64,000 nt of DNA from Acidobacteriota bacterium (GTDB lineage: Bacteria > Acidobacteriota > JAQAZP01): NCBI GenBank assembly GCA_032127265.1, contig JAQAZP010000103.1, positions 831-64,830 on the forward strand. The letters are read 5' to 3'. A model generated the notes under the pieces. The model saw only the letters and a list, made by a program, of their open reading frames with translations, was not told the origin of the DNA and did not search any database. Position 1 is the first letter of the stretch. Each line of letters starts with the position of its first letter. The position numbers and the translations under genes were made by a program. This document shows positions 1 to 47,736 of this stretch, one piece after another.

Positions 1-819
1 GTCCAGGACATCTCGAACCAACGGGTGGCCGATGCGGGTGCAGCATCAGCGGGAACCGCCTGGTATCTGGAAAGCCGTGGGGTGGTCTTCGAGAAAAACG
101 ACCCGACCAAGGCATACAACGAACCGCCGAACCGGGTGATCCGCCGGGTGACCCTGGCCCGTGAAATCCGGCGGCTGCCCATCGCACCCACCGCGGCAGC
201 GGCGCTGATCTCCGATGTGGGCCATGTGATCATCGAAACCGGTGGCCGGCTCCGCGGCTTTGACGGTCTGGCCCTGGTCTGGGACAAGCAGGGCGGGGGT
301 ACGACGAGAACCAACCGCGGCGAAGTGGACGGCGGCAGGGCCTGGGCTTCGGTGTTTGCCGGTGAAGCTGACGACTTTTCCGCCCTGGTGACCAGGGTGT
401 TTGCCACCACCCCGGAAGAGTTGCAGAACATGTCCGACATCTACGCCACTTCAGTGGATGAGCTTCCCATCCGACTACCGGACCTGGGCATCATTTACAT
501 CGACGGTGATGCGACATTCACTTCGGCCACCCCGCTCTACGGCGGCGGAGCCCTGGTGGTCAACGGCAACCTGACCCTCAGCGATAACAGTTCTTCCTAC
601 TATTCCGGACTGGTGGTGGTCAATGGGGACTATACCCAACGATCACCATCGCTGGTCAGCGGTTCGGTGATCGTACTCGGTGACAGCGACGTCCGGGGCG
701 GAATGGAGATGGCAGAAATCATCTACGAAGACGAAATCCTGAGCGTGGTACGCCAGAAACTGGGGCAGTACCGCTTTTCCCGGTCACCCTACCACGCGCC
801 CAACCGGGGGGGGATCTGA
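1..819 (+). CDS. hypothetical protein, 5'-partial (frame open to the window edge); first gene of a pilin-like operon
   Basis: Frame 1 has no stop between nt 1 and the GTG at 25, so the gene probably starts upstream of the window. Gly/Val/Asn-rich beta-like C-terminal region. Lies 40 nt upstream of two prepilin-leader genes on the same strand. Confidence 0.4.
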   Translation, partial: VQDISNQRVADAGAASAGTAWYLESRGVVFEKNDPTKAYNEPPNRVIRRVTLAREIRRLPIAPTAAAALISDVGHVIIETGGRLRGFDGLALVWDKQGGGTTRTNRGEVDGGRAWASVFAGEADDFSALVTRVFATTPEELQNMSDIYATSVDELPIRLPDLGIIYIDGDATFTSATPLYGGGALVVNGNLTLSDNSSSYYSGLVVVNGDYTQRSPSLVSGSVIVLGDSDVRGGMEMAEIIYEDEILSVVRQKLGQYRFSRSPYHAPNRGGI

Positions 820-859
820 TGAGCCCGATTACGGCCGCTGGCAAAACCGGAGAAATACA

Positions 860-3800
860 ATGAACTGGACAAGCAGAACAGGTAAACAGAAGTTGAGAAA
901 GGGTGACAGCGGCGTCTCGCTGGCTGAGATGCTGATCTCGCTCTTTCTTCTCTCGACCACGCTGATCATGATCGCCAACTACGTCGGCCTCTCCTTCACC
1001 ACCACCAAGAGTAACAAGGAGAAAGATTTCGCCACCCAGAAGGCGATCCAGATCGTCAATGAACTGCGGGCCTACGTGGAGAGCGGCAGCGAAACCCCGG
1101 CGTCGATGCTGGACAACTTCGATGACGGTGAGACCTTCAACACCATCCTCACTACCCAGCGCGGCGTGGTGGATCCCGACGATCCACTGAGTAAAAACGT
1201 TCTCGATTCCGGAAATAACTGGCACTACCTGCGTAATGTCCGGGTCACCGCCCTGCCCACCGAAAACCCGCGGGACCTGCGCGTCGTCAACATCAAACTC
1301 TACCGTGCCGAGGGCGGGGAAGCGCAGAAGGTTCTGGCCGACGTGACCACGGTGATCCGAACCTTTATCACCGACTACTTCCCACCCAGCCAGGTCTACG
1401 ACGTGTACTGCGTCGCCCTGGAGAACGTCCCCGACTGGTGGGTGCACATGTCAGCCCTGCGGCCGATGATAGAAAGCTCCTTCATCGACCTCCAGTCCCG
1501 CAACCCGGGCCTCGAGTTTCGCCTGCACTGGATCTCCCGCATGGGCTACGGACGGGACAAGCTCTACGCACCGTTCCTCAACCTGGCCGGCGGCCCGGAG
1601 GCCGCTGTGAACTGGACCTTTCACTACCCGGGCCTGATCCGCGTCTCGGACAACTTCCTCTACTACGACCCGATGACATTCCAGAGCCGGCTCAATGTGG
1701 ACGGCACGATGCAGAACGCCACGTCCTATGCCCTGGCCGACCAGTTCAATCACGCGGTCCGTTATCCCGAAGAACTGCGGATCAGGGCCGGACGACCCCA
1801 GGACACCGAGGTGAGCTACCGTGAACTGATCGAGCGGTTGAACAGTTCACCCGAGGAATTCGTCAACGCGATCATCATCAACCTCCACGGCGAACTGCTC
1901 CCCATCCCGCCGATCCGTAACTTCTCGGATGCAGCCAAGGACCCGGAAACCGACGGAACCAGCTTCGACAATTACTACAACGGGGGGAGCCGGCAGGGCA
2001 TCCGCGTGGTGACCCACCCGGAGAAGCTGGAATACCAGAACACGGATGATGTGACCCTGAGGGTTTATGCCTACGCGGACCGGCCGCTGAAACAGGACCC
2101 CCAGGCGAACTGTTTTTACAACGCTACCGGAAACGTGGACGCCGGAGACAACGTCAACATAATGGACGACATGATCGTCCTGCGTCTGCCGGGAATCGTC
2201 ATTAACGACACCTTCACCCAGGGGAATACCGGTGACCCTGACCTGTCGGTCAGCCTGATCCGCGGGGGGGCGGTGAGCTGGTGGTGCCATCCGGCCAACA
2301 ACGACCCCAATGCACCGCCCATCGACATGAACACGATGTACAACTATGTCAACATTCCGGCAAGCACGCTCAACGACCGGGAACTGACCTACTCTCCAGC
2401 CACCGACTGGATGTGTTTTCGGGTGTTCAATGTCCCGGACGATGGGGGTACACCGGAAGACGAGACTGCCGCCGTCATCTGCCTCTACAACACGCCGCTG
2501 ACCTGCCCGCAGGCAAGCGGCGCCTATGGCGCCCCCGCGGGCAATGCCAGCGGTCTGGATGTCAACGACCGGCTGTACGGCCTGGACTACATCCCCTGCC
2601 CGGTGCACAGCGATTTCATTCAGGACTTGACCGAGACATCCAACAATCCGAAGAACACGGCACGATGGATCATCACCCTCAAAAACCGGGTGATCCCCGA
2701 CAATGACAGGCTTACCGTCCAGACCCGGATCACCGACCGCGACGTGGACGTGACCAGCTGGAACCTGCTCGACGGTTCGGGCCTGGCCGTCAACCAGACC
2801 GGCGAATCGGACAACCATCCCTACAACCTCTCAGAGACCTACGCCTGGATCGGCAACGCCACCCTGCCGGCCACCGAACGTTACCAGTTGATCGGCGACC
2901 CCCGGCACAATCCGTATCTCGACGTCAAACTGCGCCACGGTTACAACTGGTATTGGATCGACAACGGGGCCATGCCGGGATACAGTGGGTTCGACCGGGC
3001 CGACTACGGCTGGAGTTCACACTATGTCGAAGTCGACTACCCGCGGGCCTGCAACCTGGTGCGCAGCGGCCTGCTGCAATCCGGCACCCTCTACACCTCG
3101 ATGACCGGTTACACCAATTACTTCATCGGTCTGGGCGGCGAAGTCGGGGCCGATGACGCCAATGGCTTTGAGGACGGCATCCCGGTAAACGGCCAACCCT
3201 ACCAGGGGTATGTGGGCAGCTACCACCGCAAGGACAAGCAGGACGGCACCCGGACCATCGAGGAGGCGGCAAACAGCGGTGACGCCAAGTGGGTCGGCCT
3301 GACCTGGCTGGGCGAGACATTTCCCGACACCGAATACCTCGCCAACTCGGTCTATCAGACCAACGGCAACCTCTCCTCGAGCCTGTTCTACCAGGTCAAA
3401 TGGAACGACCTTTCCCACTCGGCATTTGGTTGGTGCAACAAGGCGCGGACCAGGAAAACCGGCGTTCACGGGCCCGGGACCTTCTTCAATGCCAAGGGTG
3501 ACAGCAGCGGCCCGTTCAGCCATGCCTTCAACCAGGGTGCTTCGGGCACCCTGCAGCCCGAGGGCGAGGAGATGGCCGGCATCTTCCACTTCCCGCTGCC
3601 CACCAATTTTCCGGCGGCCCGGCCATTCAACCTCGATGCGCCGCCGCACCCTCCGGAATGGGACATGCCGGAGTACACCAACGTGCACAACACCAACCAG
3701 TTTCTCTCCGAGTACTACACCAATGCCACCGGAAAATACTCCAGCGCGCTGATCCAGATGCAGAGCGCAACCAATACGGAAATGGACCTGACTACCGATG

Positions 3801-4345
3801 ACTACTGCTTTGTCGTGGCCAACGGCCTCGACAAGGGAGTCTACAGCGGTGAGGGGTACTTCACCCGCTTTACCTTCATGAGCCTGATCTACGGCGTACT
3901 GCGCTCCGGTGTTCCGGGAACGGATGGTCGGATGCACCAGATCCCCCGGGTGGAAATCACCGAACCCTCGGCCGCGGACGGCCTGGAAAACCCCGGTGTG
4001 GAGACCGTGACCTGGGACACCGAGTGGTTCCGCTGGGATAACAAGAAGTATCTCGACACATACTCGGAAGGGTTCAGCGAATCCGACACCATGATCTACG
4101 CACTGAAGTACTCGCCGGACGATGGCGCCACCTGGCGCTACGTGCAGGACCGATCACTGACCGAGGCCGGCGAACGCCCGGACGACGCTCACGAATGTTC
4201 GAGTTCATCCCAGGAGACCTGGAATCTCACAAGCGCGACAGACTACCCCCAGGGGAACTACCTGCTTCGCCTGGAGGCATTCAGGGAACTCATCCCGAGC
4301 CACTACTCATATCACCAGCGCCGAGTTCTCATCGACCGCTATTGA
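860..4345 (+). CDS. giant (1161 aa) protein with a type IV prepilin-like N-terminal cleavage/methylation domain (pseudopilin-like)
   Basis: N-terminus ...KGDSG|VSLAEMLISLFLLSTTLIMIANYV: Gly at -1, Glu at +5 and a hydrophobic helix form a prepilin peptidase signal. The remaining roughly 1100 aa show no recognisable domain. Confidence 0.6.
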   Translation: MNWTSRTGKQKLRKGDSGVSLAEMLISLFLLSTTLIMIANYVGLSFTTTKSNKEKDFATQKAIQIVNELRAYVESGSETPASMLDNFDDGETFNTILTTQRGVVDPDDPLSKNVLDSGNNWHYLRNVRVTALPTENPRDLRVVNIKLYRAEGGEAQKVLADVTTVIRTFITDYFPPSQVYDVYCVALENVPDWWVHMSALRPMIESSFIDLQSRNPGLEFRLHWISRMGYGRDKLYAPFLNLAGGPEAAVNWTFHYPGLIRVSDNFLYYDPMTFQSRLNVDGTMQNATSYALADQFNHAVRYPEELRIRAGRPQDTEVSYRELIERLNSSPEEFVNAIIINLHGELLPIPPIRNFSDAAKDPETDGTSFDNYYNGGSRQGIRVVTHPEKLEYQNTDDVTLRVYAYADRPLKQDPQANCFYNATGNVDAGDNVNIMDDMIVLRLPGIVINDTFTQGNTGDPDLSVSLIRGGAVSWWCHPANNDPNAPPIDMNTMYNYVNIPASTLNDRELTYSPATDWMCFRVFNVPDDGGTPEDETAAVICLYNTPLTCPQASGAYGAPAGNASGLDVNDRLYGLDYIPCPVHSDFIQDLTETSNNPKNTARWIITLKNRVIPDNDRLTVQTRITDRDVDVTSWNLLDGSGLAVNQTGESDNHPYNLSETYAWIGNATLPATERYQLIGDPRHNPYLDVKLRHGYNWYWIDNGAMPGYSGFDRADYGWSSHYVEVDYPRACNLVRSGLLQSGTLYTSMTGYTNYFIGLGGEVGADDANGFEDGIPVNGQPYQGYVGSYHRKDKQDGTRTIEEAANSGDAKWVGLTWLGETFPDTEYLANSVYQTNGNLSSSLFYQVKWNDLSHSAFGWCNKARTRKTGVHGPGTFFNAKGDSSGPFSHAFNQGASGTLQPEGEEMAGIFHFPLPTNFPAARPFNLDAPPHPPEWDMPEYTNVHNTNQFLSEYYTNATGKYSSALIQMQSATNTEMDLTTDDYCFVVANGLDKGVYSGEGYFTRFTFMSLIYGVLRSGVPGTDGRMHQIPRVEITEPSAADGLENPGVETVTWDTEWFRWDNKKYLDTYSEGFSESDTMIYALKYSPDDGATWRYVQDRSLTEAGERPDDAHECSSSSQETWNLTSATDYPQGNYLLRLEAFRELIPSHYSYHQRRVLIDRY

Positions 4346-4384
4346 GTAGAGGAGTCAGCAACGGGACCGCGAAAGGCAACGACC

Positions 4385-5461
4385 ATGAACGGGATCAAAA
4401 TAAAGCGTCCGGAAAAACTGAAACGGGATGGCGGGGTTTCGCTGATCGAGTTGATTATCGTTCTCTTCCTTTTCGCCGTCGTCGGAATCATGACCTATGG
4501 CATCCTGGTGGGAACCGCTCGCACCAACCTCTTCCTCGAATCCCACAACGACCTGGGCGAGTTCGGCCAGCGGCTGGTCAACCAGATCAAGACCGAGGCG
4601 TTGCAGTCGAAACGCCTGTTGGACAACAGCACCGCAGGCAACGAATACCTTGCGGTCCTGGATCTGACAGGCGCACCGAATCCGCTGGACAGCACCACAC
4701 TGCCCACCATCGAGGTCTCGGGATCATTTTCACCGAGCATGGCCGACGACACGGAAAACCCATTTGTCGCCGCCAGCGTGGGCAATGCCCTGCTCTTTGT
4801 CGAATCGATTGCCCCTTACGTGGACGCAGCCAACAACGCCCGGATCGACATCTACCGCTTCAATTTCTACTATCTTTCGAACAACAGCGATCTCAGCATC
4901 GCCGGCAAGGATCACACCCTCGACATCATGCATTGGCAAAGCATCCAGTTCGCCAACTACGATCAGCTCAAGCTGCTCGAGAATCACGACACCAGCGGGG
5001 CCGCTCTGGCGGCTGCGCTCAGCGGCCTGCAGACTGCCGACCCGGCGACGGAACGGGAAGCAATCACCTGTGCCTGGGCCCCGGCCAAACCGGCGGGCAG
5101 GGCTTTCTACAACGTCAATGGAGCGACATCGCTCCCCGATGACCCTGACAGCAACTACACCATCGGGATGGGTTCGATCCGACAGGCAATCGCCAACCTC
5201 AACGAAGTGCGCATCGGCGGCGACATGCCGTACACCGTGGCTTTCAACTCCGGTGAAAGTTTCCCGATACTCGAGCCGGTTCCGCTCTTTGCCACAGCCG
5301 ACGAAACGGGAGACGGGTTCCCCAACGGCCTGGAGACGATGATTGCCGGTCCATCCGGCGGCCGCAAGATTTTCATCAGGCTTGTGCTGGTGGCTGACAA
5401 CGGCGGGGGCAATCTCGCGGCACAGGAAAACGTGGTGCTGATCAACGCAATGGACTTCTAG
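4385..5461 (+). CDS. minor pilin / pseudopilin-like protein (358 aa) with a prepilin-type N-terminus
   Basis: N-terminus ...RDGG|VSLIELIIVLFLFAVVGIMTYG (G at -1, E at +5). Starts 39 nt after the previous gene, same strand. Confidence 0.6.
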   Translation: MNGIKIKRPEKLKRDGGVSLIELIIVLFLFAVVGIMTYGILVGTARTNLFLESHNDLGEFGQRLVNQIKTEALQSKRLLDNSTAGNEYLAVLDLTGAPNPLDSTTLPTIEVSGSFSPSMADDTENPFVAASVGNALLFVESIAPYVDAANNARIDIYRFNFYYLSNNSDLSIAGKDHTLDIMHWQSIQFANYDQLKLLENHDTSGAALAAALSGLQTADPATEREAITCAWAPAKPAGRAFYNVNGATSLPDDPDSNYTIGMGSIRQAIANLNEVRIGGDMPYTVAFNSGESFPILEPVPLFATADETGDGFPNGLETMIAGPSGGRKIFIRLVLVADNGGGNLAAQENVVLINAMDF

Positions 5462-5528: not shown

Positions 5529-5566
5529 AGGCCCGGCCGGGATCAATCCCGACCGGGCCTTTTCAT
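5529..5566. terminator. GC-rich hairpin between convergent genes, likely a bidirectional intrinsic terminator
   Basis: ggcccggccggga-tcaa-tcccgaccgggcc followed by TTTTC. Sits between the convergent pilin-like gene and pckA. Confidence 0.4.
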
Positions 5567-5578
5567 TCCGTCATCGAC

Positions 5579-7207
5579 TCAACCAGCCTGGGGTCCCGCC
5601 GCCTTCACCTCGTCGGTCACCCTCTCCTCGTACTGGGTGAAGTTCTCGCGGAACCGGCCGGCCAGTTCGGCAGCCTGGCGGTCGTAAGCCTCGCCGTCGG
5701 CCCAGGTGCCCCGGGGGTCGAGCACCTCCCTGGGCAGCCCGGGGCAGTCCAGCGGCACGTCGAACCCGAACACCGGGTCCTTACGGAACTCGGCACCATC
5801 CAGTGCACCGACCATGGCCGCCTTGAGCAGCGCCCGGGTGTGGCCGATGGGCATGCGGTGCCCGGTGCCGTACGGCCCGCCGGTCCAGCCGGTATTCACC
5901 AGCCAGCAGTTGCTGCCGTGGGCCTCGATCTTCTCGCTGAGCAGCCGGGCGTATTCAAAGGGGTGGAGAAGGAGGAACGGCGCCCCGAAACAGGCGCTGA
6001 ATGTGGCCTGGGGCTCTTTGCCCATCCCCCTTTCGGTGCCGGCCACTTTCGCCGTGTAGCCGGAGATGAAGTGATACATCACCTGGTCCGGCGTGAGTCG
6101 GGACAGCGGCGGCATCACGCCGAAAGCGTCGGCGGTGAGCAGGATCACGTTCTTCGGGTGGCCGGCCATCCCCTCCCTGAGCGCCCCGGGGATGTGGCTG
6201 ATGGGGTAGGCGGCGCGGGTGTTCTCGGTGAGCGTGGAATCCTCGAGGTCCACCCGGCGGCTCCAGCAGTCGAAGCCCACGTTCTCCAGGACGGTGCCGA
6301 AACGGCGGGTGCAGGCGTAGATATCCGGCTCGGCCGCGGGGTCGAGGCGGATGACCTTGGCGTAACAGCCTCCCTCGAAGTTGAAGACCCCGCGGTCGCT
6401 CCAGCCATGCTCGTCGTCGCCGATCAGGGCCCGCTCGGGGTCGGCGGAAAGGGTGGTCTTGCCGGTGCCGGAGAGGCCGAAGAAAACGGCCGAGTCGCCG
6501 TCCGCACCGACATTGGCCGAACAGTGCATCGGCAGCACCTCCTGGCCGGGCAGCAAGAAGTTCATTACGCTGAAGATCGATTTCTTGATCTCCCCGGCGT
6601 AGCTGGTGCCGCCGATGAGCACCAGTTTGCGGGCCAGGTTGACGATGACGAAAACTTCGGAGCGGGTCCTGTCCAGTTCGGGGTTGGCGATGAAGTTCGG
6701 CACGTGGAGCACGGTGAACTGCGGCTCGTGGTCGTGCAGCGCATCCGGCTGGGCCCGAATGAACATGTTGCGGGCAAAGAGATTGTGCCAGGCCGTTTCG
6801 TTGATCACCCGGATCGGCATGCGGAACTGCGGGTCGGCGCCGGCATAGCAGTCCTGGACAAACAGGTCCTTGCCCTGGAGATAGGCCATCAACCGATGGA
6901 ACATCTGGTCGAAGGTCTCCACGGGGTAGGGCTGGTTGGCCGCGTTCCACCAGACCTGGCCCGAGGTCGTGGGCTCGTCGACGATATACTTGTCGCCGGC
7001 CGAACGGCCGGTGTGCTGGCCGGTGCGCACCACCACCGGGCCAAGGTGCGAGATCGAGCCCTCGCTGCGGCGGACGATCTCCTCGTAGAGCCCGGGGGTT
7101 CGCAGGTTCCAGTGCACCTGGTGCACGTTGCGGATCCCGTGGGTTTCCAGGCCGTGCTTGCTGACGTATTTTTCAGGCCGCATGGCAGTCCTCCTTGTAT
7201 CCACCAC
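5579..7207 (-). CDS. pckA: phosphoenolpyruvate carboxykinase (ATP)
   Basis: Full-length match by eye to ATP-PEPCK, including the kinase-1a motif GLSGTGKTTLS and the expected length of about 540 aa. Confidence 0.95.
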   Translation of the reverse strand: MVDTRRTAMRPEKYVSKHGLETHGIRNVHQVHWNLRTPGLYEEIVRRSEGSISHLGPVVVRTGQHTGRSAGDKYIVDEPTTSGQVWWNAANQPYPVETFDQMFHRLMAYLQGKDLFVQDCYAGADPQFRMPIRVINETAWHNLFARNMFIRAQPDALHDHEPQFTVLHVPNFIANPELDRTRSEVFVIVNLARKLVLIGGTSYAGEIKKSIFSVMNFLLPGQEVLPMHCSANVGADGDSAVFFGLSGTGKTTLSADPERALIGDDEHGWSDRGVFNFEGGCYAKVIRLDPAAEPDIYACTRRFGTVLENVGFDCWSRRVDLEDSTLTENTRAAYPISHIPGALREGMAGHPKNVILLTADAFGVMPPLSRLTPDQVMYHFISGYTAKVAGTERGMGKEPQATFSACFGAPFLLLHPFEYARLLSEKIEAHGSNCWLVNTGWTGGPYGTGHRMPIGHTRALLKAAMVGALDGAEFRKDPVFGFDVPLDCPGLPREVLDPRGTWADGEAYDRQAAELAGRFRENFTQYEERVTDEVKAAGPQAG

Positions 7208-33490: not shown

Positions 33491-34510
33491 ATGAAGAAAT
33501 CGATTTATTTCAGCGTTATTTTCATTGCCATGCTCTTCTGCTTTGCCTCGGTCAATGCATCGGCCCAAACCGGCAGTCTCCAGGGTACGGTCACCGACCT
33601 GGACACCGGCCTGCCCCTGGAAGGGGTGATGGTCAAGGCAATGCCCATTGACGAAGAGACCGACGGCCACGGCGGCGGACATGGCGGCGGACATGGCGGC
33701 GGTCACGGCGGATGGTGGAACTGCGCCACCACCGGCGCGGACGGCACCTACCTCATCGATGAGCTGGATCCCGGCATGTACGACGTGACAGCCATGGGCC
33801 CCGGCTACTATAGCGCGGACACCGAGGTCGAGATCGTCGACGGCGAGGCCGCCACCGCTGACTTCGCCCTTGAAATGCTGATGTTCGGCTCGCTCTCCGG
33901 CACCGTGACCGACGCTGACAGCGGCCTGCCTCTGGGCGGCGCTTTTATCCGAGTGGCGGTGACCGAACCCAAGAAATCAAAGACGCATGTTCTCGGCACC
34001 GGGAATCGCCACCACGGCGGCGGCTGCGGACAATACTACCACGCCATGACCGGCGAGGACGGCACCTATCTCATCGACAACGTCATCGTGGATTACTACG
34101 AAGTCCGCGCGTCGAAGTGTGGCTATAACCCCACCGACGCGGTGAGCCTCTTTGTGATCGAGGACGAGACGGCCGTAGCCGACTTTGCGCTCACGCCGCT
34201 GACCTACGGCGCGCTCGAGGGCTACGTCACCGACGCCGGCACCGGCGAACCCATCGAGGGCGCCTGGGTAATGCTGCGTATTGATGACGGCACGCTGCAC
34301 CATGGCGGCCACGGCGGTGGCGGATGGGGCGGCGGCCACTGCTGGGCCACCACCGACGAGAACGGTTACTACCTGATGGACGAGGTAGTGACTGGTGCCT
34401 ACATTGGTTATGCCATGGCTTGGTACTATGAGTATGGCGAGGGTTCGGTGGTCATCGTCGAGGGCGAGACCGCACAGCTGGACTTCGCGCTCGTGCTTGA
34501 CACTGAATAA
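33491..34510 (+). CDS. secreted protein with three tandem carboxypeptidase-regulatory-like (beta-sandwich) repeats, each carrying a His/Gly-rich insert
   Basis: Sec signal peptide (MKKSIYFSVIFIAMLFCFASVNASAQT). Three repeats of about 100 aa of the form G(S/A)L.G.VTD...G.PL.GA.V....(His/Gly insert)...DGTY.ID.L..G.Y.V......DFAL. Inserts: HGGGHGGGHGGGHGGWWNC, NRHHGGGCGQYYH, LHHGGHGGGGWGGGHCW. Confidence 0.65.
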   Translation: MKKSIYFSVIFIAMLFCFASVNASAQTGSLQGTVTDLDTGLPLEGVMVKAMPIDEETDGHGGGHGGGHGGGHGGWWNCATTGADGTYLIDELDPGMYDVTAMGPGYYSADTEVEIVDGEAATADFALEMLMFGSLSGTVTDADSGLPLGGAFIRVAVTEPKKSKTHVLGTGNRHHGGGCGQYYHAMTGEDGTYLIDNVIVDYYEVRASKCGYNPTDAVSLFVIEDETAVADFALTPLTYGALEGYVTDAGTGEPIEGAWVMLRIDDGTLHHGGHGGGGWGGGHCWATTDENGYYLMDEVVTGAYIGYAMAWYYEYGEGSVVIVEGETAQLDFALVLDTE

Positions 34511-38351: not shown

Positions 38352-38429
38352 TGGTGGGCCCACCTGGGATCGAACCAGGGACCAGCCGGTTATGAGCCGG
38401 CGGCTCTGCCAACTGAGCTATGGGCCCAC
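38352..38429 (-). tRNA. tRNA-Met (anticodon CAU; elongator type, or the lysidine-modified Ile2 species)
   Basis: Reverse complement folds as GUGGGCC-CAUAGCUCAGUUGGCAGAGC-CGCCGGCUCAUAACCGGCUGG-UCCC-UGGUUCGAUCCCAGG-UGGGCCCACCA. 1:72 is a G:C pair, so this is not an initiator. CCA is encoded. Confidence 0.85.
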
Positions 38430-44654: not shown

Positions 44655-44980
44655 AATGAATGTTTCACCGGAATGGTACAGATCACCGGCCTCTTGGGGA
44701 AGATCGCCCAGGGGAGGGGCTTGGAACCCGCCGGATCACCCCCGGTTCTTCTGACCCGGCATAGAAAAATCCCCAGCGGCGCAGCGTCGATCGGGGATAA
44801 ATGCCGGAATTCATGACCTCAAGTCTGAACGGAAGAATATAGGTTTCGGTCAGCGAAGTTGTCAAGATAAAATCGTCAAAAAACTGTCATTTTGCCGCAT
44901 AATCGGGAGTCCTGCCCCTTCTATGATGCTTTTGAATATTCGCCAACTTCTTTTGTCAGCCGGTCTCCGAGTCGGTCTAT

Positions 44981-45082
44981 TTAGAGGTCCAGCTCATAGT
45001 CCAGCTGCAGGCCAAGCCAGAATTCTGGCGGCATCTTGAAGTATTTTGCCAAACGGAGCGCGGTATCAGCGGTTACAGCGCC
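44981..45082 (-). pseudogene. C-terminal remnant of a HigA/XRE-type antitoxin
   Basis: Minus-strand frame reads ...AVTADTALRLAKYFKMPPEFWLGLQLDYELDL*, the conserved tail of HigA-like antidotes. There is no in-frame N-terminal HTH or start; the frame runs into the stop of the VIT gene. Confidence 0.4.
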
Positions 45083-45131
45083 AGCGTGCAGGCAATCCGC
45101 TGCATGCTCCGGTTCGGCTTCTGCTGTCCGG

Positions 45132-45827
45132 TCATACGACAAGTCCAAAGACCTTACCCACGGCAGCGGTCAATGCCATCGCCAGCGTTCCCCAGAAACA
45201 GACTCGCACGGCACCCCGAACTGGCGCCGCGCCTCCTGCAACGGCCGCAATTGCTCCCAAAGCTCCCAACAGGACAATCGCCAAAACAGGAATGAGCCAC
45301 AGCAACGAAGAAACCGAAGCCATTGATGCGGTGGCAACGGGAACAGCAGCCCCAACGGTAAATGCTGTGGCAGACCAGAAGGCCGCCTGGAACGGGCGAG
45401 CACTTAACGCCGTGGTGATGCCAATCTCGTCCCGCGCGTGTGCGGCGAGTGCATCATGTTTCATCAACTGGCGCGCCACCTCGTCAGCGAGCGTGTCTTC
45501 TAAACCGCGATCCCGATAAATGGCCGCCAATTCTTTCTGCTCTTCGTCCTGGTTGTTTTCGAGTGCGTCGGTTTCCATCCTGATGTCCGCACTTTCGGTA
45601 TCCGCCTGGGACTGTACTGAAACGTATTCCCCGGCCGCCATAGACATTGCTCCCGCTACCAATCCGGCCGTGCCGGCCAGAACAATGCTACCCTTGCTTC
45701 CACCACCTGCAGCGACTCCCACAATCAGACTGGCCGTGGATACAATGCCGTCGTTGGCGCCCAGGACTGCTGCTCGCAGCCAGCCTGAACGGTGGATTCG
45801 ATGGTGTTCAGAATGTGTTGTCTTCAA
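45132..45827 (-). CDS. VIT1/CCC1-family iron/manganese transporter
   Basis: RAAVLGANDGIVSTASLIVGVAAG plus C-terminal TM helices. 231 aa. Confidence 0.8.
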   Translation of the reverse strand: MKTTHSEHHRIHRSGWLRAAVLGANDGIVSTASLIVGVAAGGGSKGSIVLAGTAGLVAGAMSMAAGEYVSVQSQADTESADIRMETDALENNQDEEQKELAAIYRDRGLEDTLADEVARQLMKHDALAAHARDEIGITTALSARPFQAAFWSATAFTVGAAVPVATASMASVSSLLWLIPVLAIVLLGALGAIAAVAGGAAPVRGAVRVCFWGTLAMALTAAVGKVFGLVV

Positions 45828-46004
45828 GTATTTTCTCGTGTTGTTTTAGTGCCGAACGCCCCGCATCAGCCGCAAGCCGAGACGGCGCGCTGGTTGCTTT
45901 GGACCGCCTTAAAGCCCCGTAACGAGCCTCTGATCAGCCGTTCGGTTTACAACCAGCGTGACGGAAGCGGCTTGACCGTTGAATGCGGTCGTTGGCCAGT
46001 TACT

Positions 46005-46382
46005 TTATATCTTCTTTGGAAAGTACTTGACGTCAGGCAAACCCTTGAAATCAATATCCTGCGTCCATAAAGTAGCTTCATATAATCGTGCCGTTGCCAG
46101 GATGATGCTGTCTGCCATGGGCAAAGAGTGCTTAATGCTGAATTTGGCGGCAGATAAAGAAAGCCCAGGCGTGAGTTCTGCCACGATGCCCCGTTGCATG
46201 GCACTGACAGCCTGAAGTGCTTCATGCTCACCACGTTCTCGAAGTACGACTTTGAAAACTTCATATAGTGCAACGGTAGGCATAACCAGAGATTCAATAT
46301 CTTTCAGTGCAGGCAGGAAGTGTTTTGCATTCCTCCCGTCGGCGAAGTACTCAAGCCACCCGGAGGAGTCGACGATGTTCAT
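46005..46382 (-). CDS. vapC: VapC PIN-domain toxin
   Basis: MNIVDSSGWLEYF..., PIN acidic residues D5, E and D near the C-terminus, 125 aa. Overlaps vapB by 4 nt. Confidence 0.85.
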   Translation of the reverse strand: MNIVDSSGWLEYFADGRNAKHFLPALKDIESLVMPTVALYEVFKVVLRERGEHEALQAVSAMQRGIVAELTPGLSLSAAKFSIKHSLPMADSIILATARLYEATLWTQDIDFKGLPDVKYFPKKI

Positions 46383-46585
46383 ACCCTGTCTTCCTCCCGC
46401 TCAAATTCTGTGTTGATTCCTTTCAAAAATCCACGTAGCTCTTCGATATCACGCTCTGGAATCAGCTCAACTCTGCCATCATACTCAACAACCTGCATTT
46501 TCTGTCCTGGCCGGAGGCGCAAGTTATCTCGGATTGGCCGCGGGATAACGACCTGATATTTGGGGGATACAGTTACGGTGATCAT
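46379..46585 (-). CDS. vapB: VapB antitoxin (AbrB/SpoVT/MazE-fold)
   Basis: MITVTVSPKYQVVIPRPIRDNLRLRPGQKM matches the swapped-hairpin DNA-binding motif. 68 aa. Confidence 0.8.
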   Translation of the reverse strand: MITVTVSPKYQVVIPRPIRDNLRLRPGQKMQVVEYDGRVELIPERDIEELRGFLKGINTEFEREEDRV

Positions 46586-46594
46586 GTTCTTTCC

Positions 46595-46634
46595 TCCATC
46601 GATGCATATCGGTATTACATTACATCCATCGATG
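46595..46634. promoter_or_regulatory. 9-bp inverted repeat (ccatcgatg-N21-catcgatgg) immediately upstream of vapB, candidate operator
   Basis: Read from the sequence. TA loci are typically autoregulated by the antitoxin binding palindromes in their promoter. Confidence 0.35.
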
Positions 46635-47075
46635 GCGATTCGTCAAGTAATATTTTTTTGGCCACCAATTAATTATCTGGATATCCGTATATTCACATCC
46701 TCAAGTTATTTTATAACTCGTTCCAGGCTCTGATTGGCTTGGTTCGATGATGGCATGAGACCTGCATAACTAGCTGAAGAATCTAGTAGATATTACCCTT
46801 GCTGGGCGATAATGACAAGTGTTTGCGTAATGTACAATGGCTCATGCGTCCAGATAAGCCCGGCAGGGCGTTGATATGTGGAAGGTAAGGGCGAACATGA
46901 GATCAGCACGGTTTGGTTATCCTGATAGCAATGATGTCTGTATATGCACGAAATCTCGTGCTTATCTGGAAAGGATGCTGGCTGAAACCAGCTTATCCAC
47001 AAGTGATGAGGTGTAATCGCGTCCGAAGAGCAGGAAGGCCTGGCGGGGTTTGCCTCCTGGCTCCGTGAGCGGTGG

Positions 47076-47519
47076 ATGGCCCGCGAAAACCGGGTCCCCT
47101 ACTTCCTGAAATGGGTCCAACGGTTTCTCGGTTTGGCCCGGGCCAGACCGGGGGAATCCTGGCACGATTCCCTGCGCATCTTCCTCGAGGACCTGGAAGC
47201 GGGCGGAGCGCCCGACTGGCAGGTCCGCCAGGCCGCCGATGCGGTGAGCCTGTACCACGGTCAGTTTCTGGAGTCCGCCGGTGGGCGATTGACCGCCGAG
47301 GGAACCGAGCCCGGCCCGAAGGAGGATGGTCCACCATCTCCCGATGAGAAGCCGCCGGTCGATTCACCTTTTGATCGCGCTACGCCTGCCGATCCGAGAG
47401 TGATCGTGAACGAGCTCGAGCGACCCTGCTTTCGCCACTTTTCCGGATTCCGGCAGCTTACCCGGATCTGGAATGGCCGGACATCGGGAAGTCTCTTCAC
47501 TCTGCGGCAGAAACTTTGA
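47076..47519 (+). pseudogene. truncated tyrosine-recombinase gene, integron-integrase (IntI)-like N-terminal SAM-like domain only
   Basis: YFLKWVQRFL...WHDSLRIFLEDLEA...QVRQAADAVSLYHGQFL parallels IntI (YVHWVRAFIRF...EVEAFLSWLA...QALAALLFFYGKVL). After about 70 aa the frame becomes low-complexity (Pro/Glu-rich) and stops. The catalytic domain is absent. Confidence 0.45.
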
Positions 47520-47736
47520 GAGAGTGCGGGCCCCGGCGGTCCGGCCTGCCCCGCACCATCGGTCGCACGGTACTTCACCGGGGGAAACAGGGCCGAAACA
47601 GGGGTAAGTAATTGATCCCCGGGAGCCAATTTGTAAAAATATGTTATAGTTATGAGTTAACAGGAGAAACAGCGTGGTAGTTTGCGGCAGCCGAGGGGCT
47701 GTTGTTCGTGAACTCCGTTCTGTATCGGAAAGTAAC

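Follow-up and report, generated by a model that had tools for sequence, protein, structure and literature searches.

What can a minor pilin of 1161 amino acids (aa) be for? The question is raised by the left end of a 64,000-nucleotide stretch of an Acidobacteriota genome (GenBank assembly GCA_032127265.1, contig JAQAZP010000103.1, positions 831 to 64,830; hereafter the window, whose own numbering is used throughout), which carries three co-oriented genes that we call UP, BIG and DN in order of transcription. Core minor pilins sit at the tip of type IV filaments and determine whether a filament is built and of which type, and how the tip gains its function is known from few pathogens (PilY1/PilC, ComZ, and PilB and PilC of Streptococcus sanguinis). 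The I-type subunit is normally the smallest core minor pilin, with about 120 aa. We propose, with a probability of roughly 60%, that UP, BIG and DN are a K-I-J-type core minor-pilin set, that is, the tip or initiation complex of a type IV filament, with BIG as a giant I-type subunit. An earlier reading of this DNA made from its letters alone (the sequence-only reading) had also seen pilin-type proteins in one operon and had placed the giant subunit at a filament tip, which is still the best interpretation. Its further suggestions, of machinery genes just upstream and of a pilin fused to a PilY1-like, von Willebrand factor A (vWA) or beta-propeller protein, fared less well.

Results

An operon encoding a giant protein with a prepilin leader

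BIG (860-4345, forward strand) encodes 1161 aa and DN (4385-5461, forward strand) 358 aa, exactly as read before. The third gene had been described as running off the left edge, and indeed frame 1 is open from base 1 to 819: translation and a hidden Markov model (HMM) built from orthologs identify this open reading frame as the 3' part of UP (1-819, forward strand; 272 codons and a stop at 817-819). Gaps of 40 and 39 bp separate the genes, a GGAG-like ribosome-binding site precedes the starts of both BIG and DN, and a terminator-like hairpin follows at 5530-5567 (13-bp GC-rich stem with one mismatch, loop TCAA, then TTTTCATT), between the operon and a convergent phosphoenolpyruvate carboxykinase (PEPCK) gene (5579-7207, minus strand; PEPCK_ATP). 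The hairpin was seen by reading the sequence directly and is absent from the list of a consensus terminator scan. Given the spacing, the ribosome-binding sites and the terminal hairpin, the three genes form the 3' part of one operon.

The leaders of BIG and DN read MNWTSRTGKQKLRKGDSG/VSLAEMLISLFLLSTTLIMIANYVGL and MNGIKIKRPEKLKRDGG/VSLIELIIVLFLFAVVGIMTYGIL, with the slash at the expected cut. Both are basic, with G at -1, E at +5 and about 20 hydrophobic residues, so that the class III signal peptides ascribed to the two complete genes are confirmed. The leader of BIG (aa 1-18; 860-913, forward strand) was read directly and is backed by homolog conservation; it ends in Gly18, and prepilin-peptidase cleavage is predicted at G18/V19, which places Glu23 at +5. 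The G-x4-E pattern is no chance feature: of the 120 best BIG homologs, 113 retain it, the other seven being N-terminally truncated gene calls or having Ala at -1; the sequence-only reading had named a uniform lack of G(-1)/E(+5) among homologs as its refutation, and the family shows the opposite. It had also remarked correctly on VSL.E in place of the usual FTLIE (G18/VSLAE in BIG, G17/VSLIE in DN), which is a clade-level variant of the canonical motif: across the BIG family the residue at +1 is F (36), M (32), L (11), V (10) or I (8).

A pilin module followed by a conserved head

The AlphaFold2 model of BIG has a predicted local distance difference test score (pLDDT) of 84.6 and a predicted template modeling score of 0.80, and its large body is mostly confident. 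In this model, aa 19-185 (914-1414, forward strand) are predicted to fold as a pilin module, with a 55-residue alpha1 helix (21-75) packed on an antiparallel sheet of four strands (123-131, 140-151, 154-167 and 177-185), and the predicted module is superposable on the minimal pilin fold of the GspI/XcpV/EpsI type. The best structural matches are the pseudopilins XcpV, XcpW, EpsJ and GspJ of type II secretion systems (T2SS). Many BIG homologs pass the Pfam N_methyl model, for instance P0240 at 34.7 bits. With a pilin module at aa 19-185 and then a head of about 980 aa, BIG is a modular pilin in the sense of Raynaud et al. (2021).

The head (aa 186-1161; 1415-4342, forward strand) is multi-domain and highly conserved, with the motifs NLHGELLPxPPxRNYSDAAKDP, ERYQxxGDPRHxPY and GGEIGYDxANGF. 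It had been said to contain no recognizable domain, and Pfam, NCBIfam and PDB sequence searches were blank for residues 40-1161; a Foldseek search of the PDB with the BIG model gave nothing below E 1e-3 and no match to the whole body. For the three proteins of the window, Pfam and NCBIfam added nothing to the N-terminal motif, and PDB profile searches with the alignments of the BIG, DN and UP families returned pilin N-termini or sub-threshold matches only. The head includes a ThuA/GATase1-like alpha/beta domain and a C-terminal beta-sandwich (Fn3/Ig-like; 3947-4342, forward strand), inside which lies an Asp-box, S1085-x-D-x-G-x-T-W1092 (4112-4135). The extreme C-terminus, HYSYHQRRVLIDRY (aa 1148-1161; 4301-4342), is a conserved strand, and few parts of the protein are better conserved; its conserved residues are H1148, Y1149, H1152 and R1160. 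It recalls, by analogy, the C-terminal beta-strand with which PilY1/PilC completes the sheet of PilK/PilX (PMC13533445).

Alignment gaps, identity and pLDDT all mark a variable, low-confidence insert in the head at aa ~405-560 (2072-2539, forward strand). In the family alignment its gap fraction is 0.24-0.54 and its identity 0.17-0.39; pLDDT falls below 50 in segments 410-429 and 504-515, and the length variation of the family, from 1027 to 1662 aa, maps here. Some relatives carry a known domain at this position: PA14 in P0107 (aa 429-565, E 6.5e-20), Laminin_G_3 in P0032 (aa 546-701, E 1.1e-11) and, as a weak sub-threshold match, an F5/8 type C (discoidin) domain in P0199 (aa 641-711). PA14, LamG and discoidin domains are typical carbohydrate- or ligand-binding modules. 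The PA14 and LamG domains in the variable insert of relatives suggest a ligand-binding or adhesin role at the tip.

A first homolog search with BIG found over 535 proteins, 1000-1600 aa long, with E-values down to 0. When the head alone (residues 191-1161) was searched with phmmer against 1.84 billion representatives, 507 matched at E <=1e-3 and 277 at E <=1e-30, the 507 being clusters at 50% identity. In the full-length proteins among the best 150 of these 507, the match starts at about residue 170-215, behind the pilin module, and those 150 include no free-standing homolog of the head. Candidate free-standing versions were ruled out: the short matches are truncated gene calls that start within conserved motifs. 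The head therefore appears to exist only within this pilin.

UP and DN as probable partners of BIG

The ortholog-built HMM matches the UP fragment of the window at 6.9e-85. As the N-terminus of UP lies outside the window, its leader pattern was read from full-length orthologs, which have 360-450 aa. They show a conserved Gly and a hydrophobic helix and, in 19 of 19, no Glu at +5; UP is thus pilin-like, as had been proposed for the left-edge gene, only in the sense in which GspK and PilX are. Both GspK and PilX are known to carry the Gly without Glu+5. After the hydrophobic helix the orthologs have a segment A-x-A-G-L-x-D-A-x-x-W-F-R-R-Q, and the C-terminal region is repetitive (GNATF..PL.G.GIL.V.GNLTI..S.F.G.IYV.G, with a G-x-[IV]-x-V-x-G pattern in the ortholog alignment). 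Its beta-helix matches are all sub-threshold, namely DUF7305 (E 0.0067), a beta-helical trimerization domain (0.0078), an antifreeze protein (0.077), FwdC (0.057) and DUF2572. A PDB profile search with the UP family gave no GspK or ComZ chain at E <=10. The pattern, as read from the sequences, is that of a protein of the GspK/PilX position with a beta-solenoid-like C-terminal part.

DN appears to be a GspJ/PilW-like minor pilin. Its leader comprises aa 1-17, with the cut expected at G17/V18 and Glu22 at +5, and both G17 and E22 are invariant in 26 of 26 orthologs. It passes N_methyl (23.2 bits against a cut-off of 21.2) and stays just under the cut-off of TIGR02532 (15.6 versus 16.3). The AlphaFold2 model has a helix at 20-73 followed by sheets, and the predicted pilin fold, with a second, variable beta-sheet, is superposable on that of the GspJ/XcpW/EpsJ type. 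NCBIfam gave a weak XpsH match (13 versus 160 bits), and the PDB profile search with the DN family matched N-terminal helices only. Twenty sequences went into the DN HMM; searching for homologs with the DN alignment gave 21 proteins, a low number probably because the candidate list was saturated by the words of pilin N-termini.

The module is conserved across phyla

The three genes are no one-off: sequence comparison shows the module to be conserved across several phyla, a point that, like the K-I-J-type composition of the trio, goes beyond the sequence-only reading. Among GTDB species representatives, 331 species encode a BIG relative. One cultured carrier of the module is 'Acidobacteria bacterium Mor1' (CP011806, L011). 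The 80 best loci fall in Planctomycetota (47, including Phycisphaerae and Brocadiia), Acidobacteriota (16, including Thermoanaerobaculia), Elusimicrobiota (4) and unclassified metagenome-assembled genomes (MAGs; 13). The closest long contig is from an Acidobacteriota MAG, at 60% identity.

We assessed synteny with HMMs built from the flanking genes, in 81 non-redundant loci that represent three phyla. In 78 of the 81, DN comes directly after BIG, and the full order UP-BIG-DN is found in 49. Another 23 loci have BIG-DN only, with unrelated divergent genes upstream, and appear to form a Planctomycetota subgroup; in two more BIG and DN are adjacent and UP lies elsewhere within 6 kb. In the subgroup (L071, L082, L053, L067) a divergent pair of ABC-exporter-like genes precedes BIG-DN, a conserved thioredoxin-like gene of about 582 aa follows, and there is no UP within 6 kb. 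Genes outside the module vary between lineages and are not pilus machinery.

One genome bin, the MAG CALKVK01, holds two separate UP-BIG-DN modules, on contigs 12 and 9 (L026 and L027), which shows that one genome can carry paralogous copies.

Links to filament machinery

The sequence-only reading had proposed to look for type IV pilus (T4P) or T2SS machinery genes just upstream of the window. The closest long contig has none within 10 kb on either side of the module, and since the operon there begins with a 402-aa UP gene, nothing relevant should be hidden to the left of our window. A motif search of the other 46 of the window's 49 called genes revealed neither a T2SSE-type Walker A motif nor another prepilin leader. 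Outside the few loci described next the module stands alone, as minor-pilin operons of type IVa pili (T4aP) usually do.

A single locus among the 81 shows a physical link to a motor. In this Thermoanaerobaculia contig (L073, 7865-11985) the module is followed, all on one strand, by a 196-aa pilin, a 240-aa unknown protein, a T2SSF platform protein (E 1.3e-51) and a T2SSE ATPase with MshEN (2.8e-130). The 196-aa pilin has an N_methyl motif and can be called GspH-like only through the sub-threshold GspH match (E 0.014) of its counterpart in L047, which shares the small pilin after DN. In a Planctomycetota and an Elusimicrobia locus (L029, 575-4369; L033, 2368-4230) the module is directly preceded by additional small pilins and by PilX-like genes; there is a larger PilX-like protein with beta-solenoid matches, and the clusters reach up to seven pilin-like genes. 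An "ATPase" motif match in L067 was discarded as a motor, being the ABC exporter pair.

Surroundings of the operon

An origin of the operon in a mobile element or horizontally acquired island is ruled out by its GC content (0.605-0.61), near that of the rest of the window, and by its housekeeping neighbors; the genes around it are those for PEPCK, a sulfatase, an M90 peptidase, a sigma-54 activator and CarB. Elsewhere in the window, 44655-47600 is gene-poor and lower in GC (0.537 in 46-48 kb) and contains a PIN-domain (VapC-like) gene (46005-46382, minus strand) and an open reading frame of 147 aa without a Pfam match (47076-47519, forward strand); it may be a toxin-antitoxin or mobile remnant. 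The sole RNA gene of the window is a tRNA-Met (CAT; 38352-38427, minus strand), directly downstream of an RpoD-like gene of 568 aa. A secreted protein of CarboxypepD_reg (prealbumin-like) repeats, putatively of surface or adhesin type, is encoded at 33491-34510 (forward strand) and is unrelated to the operon.

Discussion

A proposed tip complex

We suggest that UP, BIG and DN would be inserted in the inner membrane through their N-terminal helices, and that a prepilin peptidase whose gene lies elsewhere would cut BIG and DN, probably also UP, behind the conserved Gly. BIG and DN, the pair that is the invariant core of the module, would associate by way of their alpha1 helices in the manner of GspI and GspJ, and UP would then cap the pair. 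The resulting trimer could template the polymerization of the major pilin by a PilB/GspE-PilC/GspF motor, also encoded elsewhere, and would end at the distal tip of the filament. There the head of ~980 aa (~105 kDa) would be on display in place of PilY1/PilC or of the large subunits of GspK/PilX type, with the hypervariable insert as the probable site of specificity. In the GspIJK/PilIJK licensing complex, a preformed I-J dimer recognizes K and then licenses polymerization (PMC13533445). A tip plug is the role proposed for beta-solenoid PilX proteins, and there are alternative sets of minor pilins encoded away from the machine (bioRxiv 10.64898/2026.02.12.705559).

The most likely role of the head is to bind a ligand, for instance a surface or a glycan, which we hold to be about half as probable as the tip complex itself. 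More tentatively still, the module could represent a new class of filament tip across phyla, in which a GspI/PilV-type subunit has acquired a ~105-kDa head that replaces PilY1 and comes with its own alpha1 anchor, the C-terminal strand might lock a PilX-like partner, the lectin-accepting insert sets specificity, and the whole primes a filament for substrate capture or adhesion in Acidobacteriota, Planctomycetota and Elusimicrobiota.

Several observations weigh against a core minor-pilin set. None of the three proteins passes a Pfam or NCBIfam model of GspI/J/K or PilV/W/X: BIG has no match to Pfam T2SSI, and reaches 16.4 bits with TIGR02523 (PilV; cut-off 52.2), over aa 17-74 only; Pfam gave N_methyl and no T2SSJ or PilW for DN; and five UP orthologs have no match to PilX_N or T2SSK at E <=1, so that the placement of UP at the K/PilX position draws on the N-terminal pattern, the gene position and weak beta-helix matches. 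The BIG protein of the window itself scores 12.8 bits with N_methyl (PF07963), under the cut-off of 21.2. There is no machinery, major pilin or prepilin peptidase in the window, and none beside the module at all but one of the loci examined. The insert of the window's own BIG has no lectin domain, and ligand binding is extrapolated from relatives. Family members are known from sequence and predicted structure, and a head of ~105 kDa may be too large to pass a secretin.

The best structural matches, all to T2SS pseudopilins, would also fit a trio that forms the tip of a T2SS-type pseudopilus, short and periplasmic, with the head acting as piston face, secretin plug or cargo adaptor. Several family members are named GspH or PulG in databases, UP would bring a body of its own as GspK does, and one locus links the module to T2SSF and T2SSE, though these do not discriminate between T2SS and T4P. 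We nevertheless consider a pseudopilus unlikely: minor pilins of Thermus and cyanobacterial T4P also find their best matches in T2SS pseudopilins (PMC5131608), no gspC, gspD, gspL or gspM was found near any module (the flanks were checked by motif and Pfam lists only), and the PA14 and LamG inserts of relatives fit an exposed tip better than a periplasmic piston. In a second alternative, the signal serves only for membrane insertion and processing and the trio is a pilin-anchored envelope complex with BIG as a membrane receptor or enzyme. Such a complex would be comparable to the sugar-binding proteins of the archaeal bindosome or to non-filament prepilin-like proteins of Planctomycetota. Planctomycetota, a phylum very rich in prepilin-like proteins whose role is unknown, dominate the family (47 of 80 loci); the module is almost always unlinked to machinery, and the head is far bigger than any pilin shown to polymerize. 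Against this, a specific K-I-J set that includes a subunit without Glu+5 suits the templating of a filament and is needless for anchoring, and H-like and other pilins as well as F and E genes adjoin the module at some loci, which makes a non-filament complex quite improbable in our judgment.

What the head does is a separate matter, and a tip complex could also display an enzyme on the filament, for example a hydrolase of glycan-active or amidase type. This variant is very doubtful: Pfam, NCBIfam, PDB profile and fold searches revealed no catalytic domain, TIM barrel or known active-site motif, and the GATase1-like domains of glycosidases that were matched are non-catalytic. The fusion of a pilin with a PilY1-like, vWA or beta-propeller adhesin that the sequence-only reading proposed is hardly tenable, as Pfam and fold searches of BIG found none of these folds, and BIG shows none of the marks of PilY1/PilC (a C-terminal beta-propeller, Pfam Neisseria_PilC/IPR008707, often an N-terminal vWA).

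Should the head prove a true tip adhesin or ligand receptor, it would open a way to study how Acidobacteriota and Planctomycetota of soil and water attach to surfaces and capture polymers, and would offer a natural test of the maximum cargo that a pilin carries through the machine. If the trio were instead not borne on a filament, it would give a clear example from bacteria of envelope complexes that use pilin signals without forming a filament.

Comparison with known systems

One close parallel is the GspK-GspI-GspJ tip (enterotoxigenic Escherichia coli, 3CI0; XcpX-XcpV-XcpW of Pseudomonas aeruginosa). There, too, three subunits are co-encoded, a K without Glu+5, an I of minimal fold and a J with two sheets; fold matches to XcpV, XcpW, EpsJ and GspJ were described above, and a GspH-like pilin comes next at some module loci. 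Here, however, it is the I-type subunit and not K that bears the extra body of ~980 aa, UP has a beta-solenoid-like part in place of the alpha-domain of GspK, the gene order is K-I-J, the module usually stands alone without gspCDEFGLM, and the trio is no sequence-level member of any Gsp family.

The minor pilins of T4aP with PilY1/PilC (FimU-PilV-PilW-PilX-PilY1 in P. aeruginosa and Myxococcus xanthus; PilH-I-J-K with PilC in Neisseria) resemble the module as priming or tip complexes encoded apart from the motor genes, in having a large tip protein of about 1000-1200 aa, and in the logic of an I-J dimer plus K (PMC13533445, PMC7541494). The module differs in that it has no separate PilY1 gene and usually no equivalent of FimU/PilE, the head has neither beta-propeller nor vWA, and the large protein, BIG, is a pilin in its own right, class III signal peptide included.

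In the PilA2-PilA3-ComZ set of Thermus and the PilX_Com and PilX_EPS/HpsA sets of cyanobacteria, all compact, the beta-solenoid at the K position is proposed to replace PilY1 as tip plug, and alternative sets may prime specialized filaments that share one machine. The description of PilX/ComZ as a beta-solenoid agrees with the weak matches of UP to antifreeze and beta-helix proteins. The enlarged subunit in those sets is PilX/ComZ and the PilV-type subunit is small, whereas here the PilV/GspI-type subunit is the giant; moreover, UP has no detectable similarity to ComZ chains in the PDB, and the phyla are others.

Modular pilins (the vWA-bearing PilB and lectin-bearing PilC of S. sanguinis, and CofB and TcpB of type IVb pili) combine, like BIG, a pilin module with a grafted one that is expected at the tip, and the PA14 and LamG modules of some BIG relatives are likewise of lectin type (PMC8179133). 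The graft of BIG, by contrast, has ~980 aa, matches no signature in the databases and has been conserved across phyla as one unit. The most extreme multi-domain architecture highlighted in the survey of modular pilins has 860 aa (PMC8179133), and that survey could not detect the BIG family because it was based on InterPro domains. Our literature search found no description of a giant subunit of I/PilV type or of the BIG family. Giant subunits are already known at the K/PilX position (ComZ, HpsA-type PilX) and as the non-pilin PilY1; the module is a different solution, with a conserved giant head on the I-type subunit, whose predicted structure is confident and has no solved relative. It occurs in about 500 clusters and in at least 331 species, which belong to mostly uncultured phyla that dominate in the environment.

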